Shown: positions 44,245 through 62,302, counted from the first letter of the stretch. The stretch is 64,000 nt of DNA from Thermoleophilia bacterium (GCA_027493445.1 JAOSKU010000001.1:1136715-1200714); one strand, 5' to 3'. Numbers and translations are program-made. The notes: generated by a model from the sequence alone, not told the origin.

Positions 44245-44302
44245 GCCCAACGCACGACCGCTGACCGGCTGGCGGAGCCAGTCCGTTCCAGCGGCCTGTT
44301 AT
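44245..44302 (-). other. attC site interrupted in its R'' box by the IS701-like element
   Basis: Minus strand [GC]ATAAC-AGGCCGCTGGAACGG...CCGGTCAGCGG-TCGTGC-GTTGGGC; removing the IS restores GCATAAC. Confidence 0.7.
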
Positions 44303-45745
44303 TAGTACTTTGTTACTCCAGCCGATGGAACAGCACCAGCTGGTTGAGGTCGACGGTCTGGTTACAGGTCTGGCAGCGGCCGTGCCAACACCGCAAGGCG
44401 GGCTGCAGGATCAGCACCGCCTGGGGCAGTGTCAGTCCGGCCGCCGGACTTTTGGGGAGAGCCGTTCGAGCGTGAGGAAGGCATGGGCGCAGGGCACCAG
44501 AGCGCAGTGATGATGGAAGCCCGGATAGCTTCGACCCTCGTAGTGATCCAGACCGAGCTCGCCTTTGAGCTGCCGGTAGTCGAGTTCGATAGTCCAGCGC
44601 AGGCGGGCGAGCCGGGCGAGATGCTCGGACTCGCTGTCTTCCGGCAGGTTGGAGAGCCAGTAGTCGGTGGGAGCCTCCGTGTCTTGGGGCCACTCGATGA
44701 TGAGCCACTCGGTGCGGGGCTCCTCTCCTCTGCGCTCTACGGCGTTCGCGGCCCAGACCCGGACAAAAGCGAAGCGGCTTACCACCTCCTCCCCCGCTTT
44801 GGTCGTCCGGTAGGGGAGCGTCTGCCAGGCCCCAGGGTTAAGCTCCCGGGCGAGCGCGCTCACCGAGACGGGCTTGCGGTCGGGCCGGTGGCGGACGACC
44901 GGCCGGCCGGGTCGGGCGCTCTTCGCAGGAGCTTTAAAGCCGGTCCCCGGTTCGAACACCCCGAGCTGGGGCGAGACGGCCACCAGATAGGTGAGCTTGA
45001 GATCGTGCAAGCCCGTACGGAAAGCCGTGTCGTCCCCGTAGGCTTGGTCGGCCAGGATGGGGGCCCGGGGATCTCCCAATCCGCCGCCTGCGCTGCCAAG
45101 GCCGTGGCGAGCTGCGGTTTGGTCTTAAAGGTGACCCCCTCCGGTATCTTGGCCTTCTCCCGCCGGGGCCCGTCCCCACACCACTCCTCCGGCAGGTAAA
45201 GGGCCCAGCCCAAAGGAGCCGTGCCCCGAGAACCAGCCGCATGCAGGCTCACCGTGATCTGGCAGCTGTCTAACTTGCCCAGCGTGCCCGAGTACTGGCG
45301 CTTCACCCCGGGGGAGTGCGAGCCGACTTTCGGGATGCCGGTGTCGTCGATGACCCAGGCGCTCACCTCGATCTCGGGCACCACTCGCTCGGCGCAGGCG
45401 CGCACGAGCATATCCGGGTCCCAGGGGGAATCCGCCAAAAACTGCTGCAGGCTCTCATAGCGGGCCGCGTCTTCTCCCAAGCGAAAGAGCGTGGGCCAGA
45501 GGCTCTTGCGCCCCCGTGCTCGACCAGACCGCGCACATAAAGGAGGGCGTTCTCCCTTTGGCGCACGTGGGAGAAGCTCGCCACCATCTCGGCGACGAAG
45601 GCCATAAGACGCTCACGCGCGTCGGCCGCGGTCGCATCCGTCTCCAGGGCCACCTGCATCTTTCCCTCCTTCCCGACATGATCCCATCCGCGGACCATGT
45701 TCGGCGTGGGGTGAGGGGGTCCTGCAATAGTCTAACAAAGTACTA
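44303..45745 (-). mobile_element. IS701-family insertion sequence (transposase 44313-45659, frameshifted)
   Basis: 13-bp TIR TAGTACTTTGTTA / TAACAAAGTACTA, TTAT target duplication; SLQQFLADSPWD, IDDTG, GVKRQYSG, RWTIE..YRQLKGELGLDHYEGRS. Confidence 0.9.
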
Positions 45746-45809
45746 TTATGCGCCTATCAGATATTGGCGAACGGATCAGGCTCGCCACTGAATAGCGGTT
45801 GAGTCAGAT

Positions 45810-46205
45810 TCAGAACGCATCGAGCGCGACGGCTACCGCTGGGAATGACTTCAGCAATTGCGCATCGGATGTCACAAGCGGCACGCCAAGCTCCTGCGCC
45901 AGCGCAACAAACTCGCAGTCGTAGGCCGAACAGGGCGAGGTCGATGCGAGACTCAGGACCTGTCCGGATTCCACCCGGTACTCGGAGCCGTCAAGTAGAG
46001 ATTCGGCCTCCGCGACCAGTTCCAATGCGTCTGAGAGAACAAGCTGTCCGCGCTTGAGATAAGTAGCCACGACGTTACGGAACTCACTGCGCCATAGAAT
46101 CGGTGCAGCCCAGTGCGGGTCCTTCTGAAAAGTCTGCCGTGCCTGTGGGGTTTTCTGCCCGCCCAGAAAAAGATAGGCAATGACATTCGTGTCGACGACT
46201 ATCAT
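45810..46205 (-). CDS. vapC: VapC/PIN toxin
   Basis: MIVVDTNVI, SEFRN, SAYDCEFVALA, LVTSD. Confidence 0.9.
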   Translation of the reverse strand: MIVVDTNVIAYLFLGGQKTPQARQTFQKDPHWAAPILWRSEFRNVVATYLKRGQLVLSDALELVAEAESLLDGSEYRVESGQVLSLASTSPCSAYDCEFVALAQELGVPLVTSDAQLLKSFPAVAVALDAF

Positions 46206-46444
46206 GGGCGCCCTGAATCCTTGGCAATCTTAAGAGAATCTTCCGTGAGCGGCGGGAGCGCAACCCTCTCGCGCAGAGCATCCGCACGATTGAGAAGTGT
46301 GGTCGCGTCGATCCGCTGGCTCGCGAAAGCTCTTTCCAGGCAGACGATAACCTCACTGTTGATGCTCCGACGATGGGCAGCGGCGCTCTTCTTCAGGCGC
46401 GCATAGAGCTCGTCAGGAATGCTCTTGATCGTTATTGTTGCCAT
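46202..46444 (-). CDS. FitA/Arc-like RHH antitoxin
   Basis: MATITIKSIPDELYARLKKSAAAHRRSINSEV; upstream palindrome TGCATGAT-TCC-ATTATGCA at 46467-46485. Confidence 0.88.
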   Translation of the reverse strand: MATITIKSIPDELYARLKKSAAAHRRSINSEVIVCLERAFASQRIDATTLLNRADALRERVALPPLTEDSLKIAKDSGRP

Positions 46445-46520
46445 CCCCGATTCCTCCGGCGGTTCCTGCATGATTCCATTATGCAACCATTCTACATGTT
46501 CCTACCGGACGGCGTCAACC

Positions 46521-46587
46521 GGCTAACGCTCTTGCGCGTCAGCGGAGGGCCGCGCAGCGGACTGTGCGTTGCAACCGGATGCCAGAC
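46521..46587 (-). other. attC site (degenerate R'')
   Basis: GTCTGGC-ATCCGGTTGCAACG...CGCTGACGCGCAAGAGC-GTTAGCC. Confidence 0.6.
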
Positions 46588-46594
46588 GCCCCTT

Positions 46595-60474: not shown

Positions 60475-60497
60475 ATGTCCCCCTCGCAGCGGGCTAA

Positions 60498-60725
60498 TCA
60501 GCGCTCTTGGCGCGCGTATCCCTCGCGGACAACGGAGTTGATGAACCCGTTCAGCCCGTGACCATCCGCCGCCAGCCGCTTCATTGTCTCGCAGTTGTTC
60601 GCACCACAGCTCGCGTAGTTGTGTAGGTAGACCGCGCCGGTGATGAACTGGACACGGATGAAGTCCGGCCCGCATTCGTAGGCTGAGACTCCCGAGTCAC
60701 CGCCCCTATTCCCGTAAGGTTGCAT
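60498..60725 (-). CDS. Small KTSC-like conserved protein
   Basis: YGNRGGDSGVSAYECG..FIRVQF..GAVYL.NY...MKRLA..GHGLNGFIN; GGAGG RBS. Confidence 0.7.
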   Translation of the reverse strand: MQPYGNRGGDSGVSAYECGPDFIRVQFITGAVYLHNYASCGANNCETMKRLAADGHGLNGFINSVVREGYARQER

Positions 60726-60742
60726 TCATCCTCCCCCTGCGT

Positions 60743-60829
60743 GGCTAACGACCTAGCGCGTCAGCCGCGCCCGTTGGCCACGGTACATGCAAAGACAACG
60801 CAGGCGTCGGTTGCACGCGCTGGTTAGAC
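60743..60829 (-). other. attC site (87 bp)
   Basis: R'' GTCTAAC, AGCGCGTGCAACCG / CGGCTGACGCGCT arms, R' GTTAGCC. Confidence 0.9.
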
Positions 60830-60968
60830 CAGCCGATCCGGCAGTGAGCCGATGCCTGGACGCCAGAGGACACTGGAGTACAAAGACGCCAAGAGAGGCA
60901 CGGGATTGAGACACAACCAACTGCCATCAGGCGAACATACTGTATCCGTGCGCCACTGCTCACCGAGT

Positions 60969-62189
60969 CTACCAATCCATGTTCGCCGCCATGTCGAATT
61001 GCCAGGTCAGAGCTTCGACCAGCGTCTCCATCGCGTCCACTGAACTCATTGCCTCGAAGTAGCTCCCATCTTTCGCCATCGTCAGTATGAGCGGCAGACC
61101 ACTCTTCTGGATGTAGACCTCGGCAGCTGCGCGGTCGTCGGACCATAGGTGGACGATGAACTCTTCAGCCAATGCAATGGCGTCCCTGCCCTCAAGGCTT
61201 CCGTACGTGCCAAGGTCGACTCTACCGTCACCAGGGGAACCAGCGAGTATCACCGGAACAGCCCCCGCACCCGAGTGGAATTCAAGCGCTTCACCGTTCT
61301 TCACGAACGCGCCGTGCGCCACATAGTTGCGAACTTTCTTCCGAACTGCCACGAGTTCATCGAAGTACTTCTTGGTGACAGGGTCCGTAATCTCCAACGC
61401 CATCTTGAATTTACCTGCCCAGTCCGCAGCCGCAAGGTCGGCAACCTCGATCCCGGTCGTGACACGACCTTTGAGTATCGCCAGATGGATGAACACGTGC
61501 TCAGTCCAACTGAAGAATGCCTCGATGGCGGCGAGGGCCAGCCAATGTGCTTCCAAGCTGAGGCGAAATGCAGGGTGGTGGACCACAGTCCACGTACCAA
61601 GCTCGCTCTTTCCCGTCTCGACTTCCGTTTCGTCTTTTCTGTCGAAGGCCTCCTTGGCCTTCGCCTTGTATGCTTCCGCGAGATAGTCAAATCTCTGGAA
61701 GAGGCTCCGGCTCCCATTGACTACGTTCACTTGCGAGCCCTTGACAGCTTCGGATGCCACCCACCTGAAGTATGGGCGCGCCGCTTTCACTCCCGTCTGA
61801 ATGCAGGTCACAACCTCGTGCGCGAGGCCCTCGTCAGCCTCAGGGTCATCAGCAAACACACCCAAACCCAGTTTGCGGTGTTCAACCATGAACACCCGAT
61901 CCTTCAGCTCCACCGGGACTGACCAGGCCACCTTCTCCGACCGCCCCAGGTGGGGAAATCCGAGCAGTTCAACCAAGAGAAAGTACACCAGATAGTAGGG
62001 AGGAAGCTCATATCCCGCCCGCGTTCGCCGCGCGTGGAACATGAAGCTTTCGTCTAGGGCTGCCCCGGAGGCTAGAGGCCGAACAGGGCCTAGGGCACGC
62101 AGAGCCGCGCGTCGAATCGAGTCAATATCTACCGATTTGACAGACGTCGTCCCCGTACGCTTACCCCCAGAGATATCAGCGCGAGTCAT
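60969..62189 (-). CDS. Cassette-encoded protein with a HEPN-like R-x4-H motif
   Basis: Helical region AAIEAFFSWTEH followed by VRNYVAHG. Confidence 0.65.
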   Translation of the reverse strand: MTRADISGGKRTGTTSVKSVDIDSIRRAALRALGPVRPLASGAALDESFMFHARRTRAGYELPPYYLVYFLLVELLGFPHLGRSEKVAWSVPVELKDRVFMVEHRKLGLGVFADDPEADEGLAHEVVTCIQTGVKAARPYFRWVASEAVKGSQVNVVNGSRSLFQRFDYLAEAYKAKAKEAFDRKDETEVETGKSELGTWTVVHHPAFRLSLEAHWLALAAIEAFFSWTEHVFIHLAILKGRVTTGIEVADLAAADWAGKFKMALEITDPVTKKYFDELVAVRKKVRNYVAHGAFVKNGEALEFHSGAGAVPVILAGSPGDGRVDLGTYGSLEGRDAIALAEEFIVHLWSDDRAAAEVYIQKSGLPLILTMAKDGSYFEAMSSVDAMETLVEALTWQFDMAANMDW

Positions 62190-62241
62190 GCCAACTGCAG
62201 TCCTCTTCCGTGTTCAAAGTCAGTCCGGTATTGCTCGGTCG

Positions 62242-62302
62242 GTCTAACGTGTTTGCGGATAACCCGCGAGCGAAGCGAGTCGGGTTGATCCGCGGGTTAG
62301 GT
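62242..62302 (-). other. attC site (61 bp)
   Basis: ACCTAAC-CCGCGGATCAACCCGACTCGCTTCGCTCGCGGGTTATCCGCAAACAC-GTTAGAC; close relative of the 58490 site. Confidence 0.92.

Follow-up and report, generated by a model that had tools for sequence, protein, structure and literature searches.

The subject of this analysis is a stretch of 64,000 nucleotides (throughout, the window) from a genome deposited as Thermoleophilia bacterium (GCA_027493445.1, JAOSKU010000001.1:1136715-1200714), and we find that its part from 43.7 to 64.0 kb is very probably the larger portion of a chromosomal, integrase-less array of integron cassettes (CALIN, a cluster of attC sites lacking an integron-integrase) in an uncultured member of the Actinomycetota. 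The array runs leftward from the stop side of dnaE (~65.9 kb) to ~43.7 kb and holds at least nine cassettes, each of which would consist of a promoter-less gene or gene set and an attC recombination site. The window corresponds to positions 1136715-1200714 of contig C1 of this genome (G000); positions above 64000 continue the window numbering, from which 64000 is subtracted for locus L001 and 84000 for locus L002. An earlier account of the same DNA, made from its letters alone (the sequence-only reading), had already described an integron-type array at this place.

To describe the attC sites (Table 1) we used a covariance model, R1, made from an alignment of the five strong sites of the window with a sixth, 22 kb to the right, into which the R and L helices were entered by hand; a strict RYYYAAC...GTTRRRY pattern combined with fold filters finds three of the five strong sites, two boxes being off consensus, and a covariance model was preferred because the pattern misses the other two. 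With filters off, R1 scores the five strong sites at 54-82 bits on the minus strand as against 7-18 bits on the plus strand, although these are its training sites and match by construction. Among sites on which it was not trained, R1 recovers the three degenerate sites of the sequence-only reading at 19.9-23.1 bits, 12 further minus-strand sites in a neighbouring array (in L002) and dozens of sites beside the intact intI genes of related genomes, and its strong matches in the genome are confined to a few clusters. All eight minus-strand sites are thus found where they had been proposed, five of them strong and three degenerate (20-23 bits). An Rfam search of the window at the gathering thresholds gave zero matches.

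The sites share a common plan. After R'' and two bases comes an L'' block of 6 bp; a bulged base separates it from a further L'' block, which ends in GAC, and a loop then leads to the L' blocks, a spacer and R'. They are 60-98 nt long, with a 5' spacer of 2 nt as against a 3' spacer of 3-7 nt, and with loops of 12-46 nt. The hallmarks of attC sites are imperfect L''/L' repeats, an extra-helical base on the R''-L'' arm, unequal spacers, a variable loop and a length of ~57-141 nt. An R'' ending in AAC and an R' starting with GTT are both present in all five strong window sites and in 11 of the 13 sites of the neighbouring array; in the three degenerate window sites one or both R boxes are mutated or cut. 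When the plus strand of the strong sites (the bottom strand of the cassettes) is folded as a single strand it forms a long imperfect hairpin (z-scores of -2.5 to -3.4), with a bulged G on the R''-L'' arm in the folds of attC 1 and attC 3, which represent a single 60-nt type, the difference between them being a compensated pair. Covariation, seen in both L helices, provides additional support for this structure. In a 21-site alignment, which was fitted to R1 and hence leans toward the R1 structure, 87% of the cells pair, compared with 24-39% when the partners are slid, and 49 cells are changed on both sides, compared with 19.8 ± 3.3 after shuffling, a value of 49 being reached in 0 of 500 shuffles.

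The junctions between cassettes point in the same direction. An integron integrase would recognise the folded bottom strand of attC and cut R' between G and TT, so that the last six bases of R' would belong to the next cassette and complement the R'' of that cassette. The four links of the window chain are all exact (GTTAGAC/GTCTAAC, GTTAGCC/GGCTAAC, GTTAGGC/GCCTAAC and GTTGGGC/GCCCAAC), and when both arrays are taken together the four variable positions agree exactly in 9 of 20 links, against a mean of 2.4 in 100,000 shuffles (P about 3e-5); R'' complements the R' of its own site in just 2 of 21 sites. The four exact links place the boundaries of these cassettes at G|TT, where those of an integron cassette array lie. 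All cassette open reading frames (ORFs) lie on the minus strand, the sole exception being the transposase of an inserted IS256-family element, and most cassettes carry defence or toxin-antitoxin genes by Pfam and PADLOC. The chain, the common orientation and the defence-like content had each been part of the sequence-only reading, as had integrase-style insertion of the cassettes, which the junction signature and the covariation both favour.

Leftward of attC 5 the sites decay, and the last one adjoins an IS701-like insertion sequence (IS). Beyond the HicB-like gene (43720-44094) follow a DUF429 gene and an RNase T/BRCT gene. The cassettes have a GC content of 0.55-0.65, compared with 0.66 for the genome.

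Judged by profile searches and protein identities, the host is an uncultured member of the Actinomycetota (GTDB grouping) from a class without WhiB, the name of that class resting on the titles of three metagenome-assembled genomes (MAGs). Its LeuC is 81% identical to that of a MAG titled Thermoleophilia bacterium, 79% to that of one titled uncultured Gaiellales bacterium and 78% to that of one titled uncultured Actinomycetes bacterium. These are its best named matches, those after them showing at most 68% identity, and the third MAG belongs to the GTDB family of the window genome, a placement that genomes G043 and G216 also indicate. In a profile search, WhiB was found neither in the window genome nor in any genome of its class (0/41), and it was found in 44 of 81 genomes of a sample of the same GTDB phylum (three of the positive genomes being unpublished), where it was all-or-none per family; in the control set the search matched Corynebacterium only. 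The contrast between these counts places the host in a WhiB-less class of the Actinomycetota, and the sequence-only reading, which had called the host probably non-proteobacterial, agrees with both WhiB and LeuC.

No tyrosine recombinase gene was seen in or adjoining the window array, which therefore has no intI beside its attC cluster, as a complete integron would, and whose five strong and three weak sites make it a CALIN. A search of the genome with TIGR02249 (integron integrase; curated cut-off 265 bits) gave three intI loci. The copy at C1:3325015-3325845 scores 391 bits, lacks the first 38 model positions, carries an in-frame TAG and an in-frame TAA, and has co-oriented attC sites downstream. 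The copy at C1:3171113-3172034 is full length over three frames (189 + 185 + 24 bits), with weak sites downstream. The third, at C1:1234791-1234910, is a remnant of ~40 residues (TIGR02249 positions 267-306, 54 bits) with a TAG, and lies 34 kb past the window end, at the head of the array in L002, with a 220-bp repeat beside it and leuD and leuC beyond that. As stops and truncation differ from 1-nt shifts, the damage to the 3.32-Mb copy is probably real; the 1-nt shifts of the 3.17-Mb copy are like proven assembly errors (see below), and we therefore do not count that copy as dead. It is the only candidate in the genome and may supply IntI in trans.

The array in L002 has 13 sites on the same strand as the window array and lies ~23.5 kb from it, across dnaE, feoB, leuA, leuB, a cytochrome c gene, a narG-like gene, narH, narJ and two MFS genes, between which R1 finds no attC. 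The sequence-only reading was thus right in seeing no intI in the window and went astray in expecting one to the right: what follows there is the dnaE border, core genes, the second array and only then the ~40-residue remnant. In the three nearest relative loci leuB comes directly after leuD (3/3), and in one of them leuA and a FeoB-like match follow, which argues that the leuD-side integron, perhaps together with the nar genes, was inserted and that the window array forms an attC cluster of its own, beyond the conserved core genes. In 10 loci from named relatives R1 detects no attC around leuC-leuD, and the leuD-side integron is therefore not common to them. The nar-like cluster itself (L001:11494-L002:1664, or 75494-85664) comprises the cytochrome c gene, a 1221-aa molybdopterin subunit, narH, narJ and the two MFS transporters, and could have been acquired together with the integron or beside it. 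Other small clusters of attC sites are found at C1:3520744-3521025 (L005), 2562919-2562982 (L006) and 3327016-3327859 (L004), and from this scatter the genome carries several separate integron remnants.

Integrons are also present in the relatives. In the same GTDB family, 13 of the 60 other genomes have an IntI match at E <= 1e-40, seven of them with a full-length, stop-free copy; such stop-free copies score 457-486 bits with TIGR02249, and 11 of the 61 genomes of the family, G000 included, are above its cut-off. No IntI was found in the 16 sampled genomes of other families of the class (0/16), nor in the only genome of the same genus, which is 64% complete. At all five family loci examined (5/5), R1 sites lie 3' of intI and on its strand, with at least 29 in G014, 6 in G004, 7 in G003, 4 in G019 and 2 in G021. 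The intact IntI of G014 aligns end to end with IntI4 of Vibrio cholerae (2A3V, E 1.9e-84); the match covers residues 14-326 at 286 bits and extends through the integron-specific insertion. Across the phylum sample IntI exceeds the cut-off in 14 of 151 genomes (12 of 149 if two unpublished genomes are left aside) and is concentrated in families f15 (6/10) and f17 (4/10), both WhiB-positive; at four loci outside the family, together with that of G043, 42 of 42 R1 matches are on the intI strand, with 24 in G051 and 10 in G172. That integrons are rarely reported in Actinobacteria, as the sequence-only reading had stated, therefore holds for the literature consulted and fails for the genomes.

On these counts we incline, by a little, to the view that several uncultivated families of the Actinomycetota keep an IntI lineage of their own, of the 'inverted' type (intI sharing the orientation of the cassettes), with sizeable arrays, and that they exchange defence cassettes with one another; some cassettes, among them the 9.2-kb five-gene unit described below, would then be far larger than the field takes to be possible. 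If this is true, the window genome would represent the decay end of a cycle, with three damaged intI copies, detached arrays and invasion by IS and introns, and its relatives would represent the working systems; why high-GC Gram-positive bacteria seem to be without integrons, a question of long standing, could then be tested directly on the systems of the relatives.

For the window array itself we propose that the cassettes were inserted singly by an IntI of the inverted type. The proximal part would be recent or would have kept its capacity to recombine; the distal part would be in decay, and any present-day movement would require IntI in trans.

How the array came to lie beside dnaE can be explained in more than one way. 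A possible, if unlikely, course of events is separate seeding, in which a trans-acting integrase would have put a cassette into an attG-type GTT site after dnaE and more cassettes would have been added at the resident attC. Insertion at such non-classical genomic sites (attG) was reportedly described by Loot and co-workers in 2024. The ~250 bp between the start of the helicase gene and the stop codon of dnaE contain a lone GTTAGGC (~65869), at which the array starts, at most 40 bp from the dnaE stop, with neither an R1 match nor an R''/L'' half upstream, and the several separate small attC clusters in the genome are what dispersed insertion would leave. One heptamer in ~250 bp could nevertheless be due to chance, and this one fits the expected partner of the attC 1 R'' at three of the four variable positions; moreover, the addition of cassettes at attC instead of attI is inefficient in the systems studied, which counts against such seeding.

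It is doubtful, in our view, that a single ancestral integron on the leuD side gave rise to both arrays, its distal half, now in the window, having been split off by a rearrangement. Such an origin would explain why they share strand and common site types at a distance of 23.5 kb, and why the sole intI remnant nearby heads the right-hand array; the rearrangement could have been driven by the highly similar IS families and by the 220-bp repeat, of which there are more than 400 copies. Yet leuB, leuA and feoB, which lie between the arrays, stand in the same order after leuC-leuD in the nearest relatives, the chain is unlinked across the arrays (R' GTTCTGT as against R'' ACCTAAC), and the IS256-family element that heads the window array is a simple insertion, as its intact 8-bp target duplication, TGCGCGCC, indicates.

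That the repeats are other palindromic intergenic repeats or terminators, with a coincidental heptamer chain, is highly improbable: they are GC-rich hairpins 3' of ORFs, as terminators are, and their fold z-scores alone are modest, but the R1 scores depend strongly on orientation, the AAC...GTT ends are conserved, the spacers are of unequal length, there is a bulged base on the R''-side arm, the chain has the low P value given above, R1 arrays lie directly 3' of bona fide IntI genes in nine related and unrelated actinobacterial loci, and R1 matches are not spread evenly over the genome.

We consider it equally far-fetched that the actinobacterial host is an artefact of an assembly chimera or of a mis-binned foreign contig. 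The lower GC content of the array and the presence of indel errors in the assembly might suggest as much; however, the window lies within a 4.60-Mb contig that makes up 98% of the 4.70-Mb genome (66% GC), the leu genes that flank the array share both their order and 62-81% identity with those of the nearest relatives, and integrons of the same kind are found in the relatives. Logan short-read contigs of four sequencing runs, each from a different study and two of them possibly the source of this DNA, were compared with the window over 44000-63900 and cross the cassette junctions without differences: one piece spans 56649-62438 (attC 4 to attC 1) and another 46667-49600 (attC 5 and the next site), each with zero differing letters. 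Among the runs listed for this DNA none is of RNA, and those with small shares of it, from mangrove and activated sludge, carry no information on habitat. The fear expressed in the sequence-only reading, that the contig might be chimeric at ~40 kb, finds no support in the leu gene order or in the contigs of the four runs. The contigs of all four runs have extra letters at 45066, 45510 and 54034, so that neither the apparent frameshift of hsdS nor the two of the IS701-like transposase appear in them, and the splits in both genes are errors of the window's assembly. The splits in dnaE (L001:1907-5400) and in the intI at C1:3171113-3172034 are of the same sort, being single-base shifts at short runs of C or G. 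Cassette excision was considered as the cause of four contig joints and rejected: none of them lies at an attC boundary, their sides are of 30 letters at most and one is at an IS256 end, and we read them as joins to repeats or foreign DNA.

Several observations weigh against the interpretation of the window as part of a CALIN. There is no integrase within 34 kb of the array and none that is demonstrably intact in the genome; the bit scores come from R1, which was trained on the window's own sites, and not from the attC model of IntegronFinder; three of the eight window sites score just 20-23 bits; the heptamer at the dnaE border fits its expected partner imperfectly; and no excised or re-ordered forms were seen in the short-read contigs, a result of little weight, as contigs lose rare variants.

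The first recognisable cassette, which attC 1 closes, carries a GajB-like helicase gene cut by the IS256-family element. Its ORF of 597 residues starts at ~65622, outside the window, and matches UvrD-helicase of Pfam (159 bits) and GajB of PADLOC (137 bits). The 406-aa ORF falls, in Atlas, among clusters of hypothetical proteins from several phyla; the 192-aa ORF likewise belongs to hypothetical clusters, with a structural neighbour in Atlas that is fused to a Schlafen/AlbA_2 domain, which we take as a lead only. The OLD-family cassette scores 162.8 bits with Old, 141.7 with AriA and 85.9 with GajA in PADLOC. A HigA-like remnant also occurs among the cassettes, as read from the translation near attC 5, and paralogues of the MNT gene are present in other attC arrays. 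The HicB-like gene is probably a cassette as well, since an 86%-identical paralogue lies beside the strong attC at C1:2562919-2562982.

The largest unit is that between attC 4 and attC 5. R1 with filters off finds no attC above 9.6 bits on its minus strand, and the chain closes across it, and on these grounds the 9.2-kb restriction-modification unit is read as a single, putative cassette. An HsdR search of the 60 other genomes of the family found no second copy of this cassette; HsdR matches occur in 4 of the 60, at 41-44% identity and without the S24 tail. In the window HsdR, residues 1127-1233 form a LexA-like Peptidase_S24 domain, and the CHAT and DUF3800 genes are interspersed among the hsd genes. 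The 9.2-kb spacing exceeds the 4-kb rule for clustering attC sites (PMC4889954), so that default settings would probably split the window array; for annotation, this means that the rule can split real arrays.

Table 1. Features of the cassette array, in window numbering (strand as read in the window).
Feature	Position	Strand	Details
IS256-family insertion sequence	62409..63829	+	1421 bp; transposase 62530-63777; Pfam Transposase_mut 401 bits
GajB-like UvrD-family helicase, 3' part	63832..64000, last stretch 62303-62408	-	cut by IS256; first recognisable cassette
attC 1	62242..62302	-	61 nt; R'' ACCTAAC, R' GTTAGAC; 65.0 bits; closes helicase cassette
Cassette ORF, 406 aa as listed	60969..62189	-	Atlas record starts at residue 50; no Pfam or PADLOC family
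attC 2	60743..60829	-	87 nt; R'' GTCTAAC, R' GTTAGCC; 82.4 bits on minus strand vs 11.9 on plus; link to attC 1 exact
OLD-family ATPase + TOPRIM nuclease	58558..60675	-	Pfam AAA_15 137 bits, OLD-like_TOPRIM 48.5 bits
attC 3	58490..58549	-	60 nt; R'' GGCTAAC, R' GTTAGGC; 67.7 bits; link exact
Cassette ORF, 192 aa	57900..58478	-	no Pfam or PADLOC family
attC 4	57803..57898	-	96 nt; R'' GCCTAAC, R' GTTGGGC; 54.7 bits; link exact
Type I restriction-modification unit, 9.2 kb, five genes	48626..57802	-	read as one cassette; Pfam, PADLOC
hsdM	55717-57753	-	PADLOC MTase_I 959 bits
CHAT-domain gene	54653-55720	-	Pfam
hsdS	53202-54543	-	PADLOC Specificity_I 299 bits
DUF3800 gene	52312-53205	-	Pfam
hsdR with C-terminal Peptidase_S24	48672-52388	-	PADLOC REase_I 127 bits
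attC 5	48566..48625	-	60 nt; R'' GCCCAAC, R' GTTGGGC; 54.4 bits; link exact; closes 9.2-kb cassette
Degenerate attC	48350..48411	-	23.1 bits; L boxes intact; R'' (AGCTAGC) and R' (GTCAGTC) mutated
MNT-type nucleotidyltransferase	47961-48275	-	Pfam NTP_transf_2
HepT fragment	47753-48004	-	Pfam HepT-like
Short-chain dehydrogenase	46934-47698	-	Pfam adh_short_C2
Degenerate attC	46521..46587	-	20.1 bits; R'' GTCTGGC, R' GTTAGCC
FitA/VapB-like ribbon-helix-helix antitoxin + PIN toxin	45810..46486	-	Pfam FitA-like_RHH, PIN
IS701-like insertion sequence	44303..45748	-	DDE_5 transposase (Pfam); end at 44303 from copy comparison and contig breaks
Degenerate attC	44245..44304	-	19.9 bits for 44248-44301; R'' end adjoins end of IS701-like element
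HicB-like antitoxin gene	43720..44094	-	Pfam HicB; probably last cassette

In light of earlier surveys, the host is the unusual part of this finding. Cury et al. (2016) state that complete integrons are absent from all Actinobacteria (PMC4889954), a survey of 21,105 complete genomes lists 'a few CALIN' and zero complete integrons for them (PMC9024848), and a metagenome study of 2026 calls integrons all but absent from Actinomycetota (PMC13323075). The authors of PMC4889954 and PMC9024848 call the reason for the actinobacterial lack unknown. Our literature search, subscription journals and supplements aside, gave no description of such arrays in Thermoleophilia, Gaiellales, Acidimicrobiia or Actinobacteriota/Actinomycetota.

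The element as such belongs to a kind already known, namely a CALIN accompanied by an 'inverted' integron that has decayed. It resembles the CALIN of PMC4889954 in that two or more attC sites of one orientation accompany cassette ORFs, with no intI nearby and other integron elements in the same genome, and it looks like a degraded or detached integron; it differs from them in the phylum of its host and in the 9.2-kb gap between two sites. With the sedentary integrons of Vibrio and Xanthomonas it shares chromosomal, promoter-less cassettes, similar attC sites and a wealth of toxin-antitoxin and anti-phage genes. As opposed to those, it has no functional integrase at its head, intI in this lineage points with the cassettes, and it is far smaller, with 8 sites in the window array and 13 next door. 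The criteria given for sedentary chromosomal integrons are more than 19 attC sites or presence in all genomes of a species (PMC4889954), against which the 8 + 13 sites found here are not contiguous. A preprint by Darracq et al. (2024; 10.1101/2024.07.02.601686) describes sedentary integrons as 'biobanks' of defence and reports that they are dominated by compact systems of types II and IV and lack long loci; the window array, in contrast, holds a five-gene type I restriction-modification unit. 'Inverted' integron-integrases are known from Treponema spp. (PMC4889954, PMC13323075), and the same arrangement, with intI and attC on one strand, is seen in the 3.32-Mb locus and in all nine loci of relatives examined. 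The phylum differs, and the likeness to Treponema described here is one of orientation. As regards V. cholerae IntI4 (VchIntIA), its alignment partner is the IntI of the relative G014, the window genome's own copies being damaged.

The interest of the array thus lies in the phylum, in whole actinobacterial families that maintain integrons and in an unusually large restriction-modification cassette. With bona fide IntI genes and attC arrays in three actinobacterial families, the question shifts from why there are none to which lineages have them and what differs in these. For recombination tests, the relatives offer naturally paired attC sites and IntI of high-GC Gram-positive origin. If the 9.2-kb cassette moves as one unit, it would widen both the accepted size range of cassettes and the range of integron-borne defence.

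The mobile elements that accompany the arrays belong to a few families. The IS701-like element has two more full copies and one split copy, all more than 99% identical. A dispersed repeat of ~220 bp, which resembles a miniature inverted-repeat transposable element and gives more than 400 blastn matches, mostly 82-96% identical, has one copy at L002:14280-14502 (C1:1234994-1235216) and another at ~15832-16051 of the window. Genes for group II intron reverse transcriptases/maturases, oriented as the cassettes are, lie at L002:9828-10877 (minus strand), inside the L002 array, and at L004:11094-12506 (plus strand), beside the 3.32-Mb integron; in this they are reminiscent of the group IIC introns that target attC. 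The IS256-family element has seven other copies in C1, more than 99.3% identical, with an 8-bp target duplication at each copy checked, and one of these copies lies ~530 bp from the isolated strong attC at C1:2562919-2562982.

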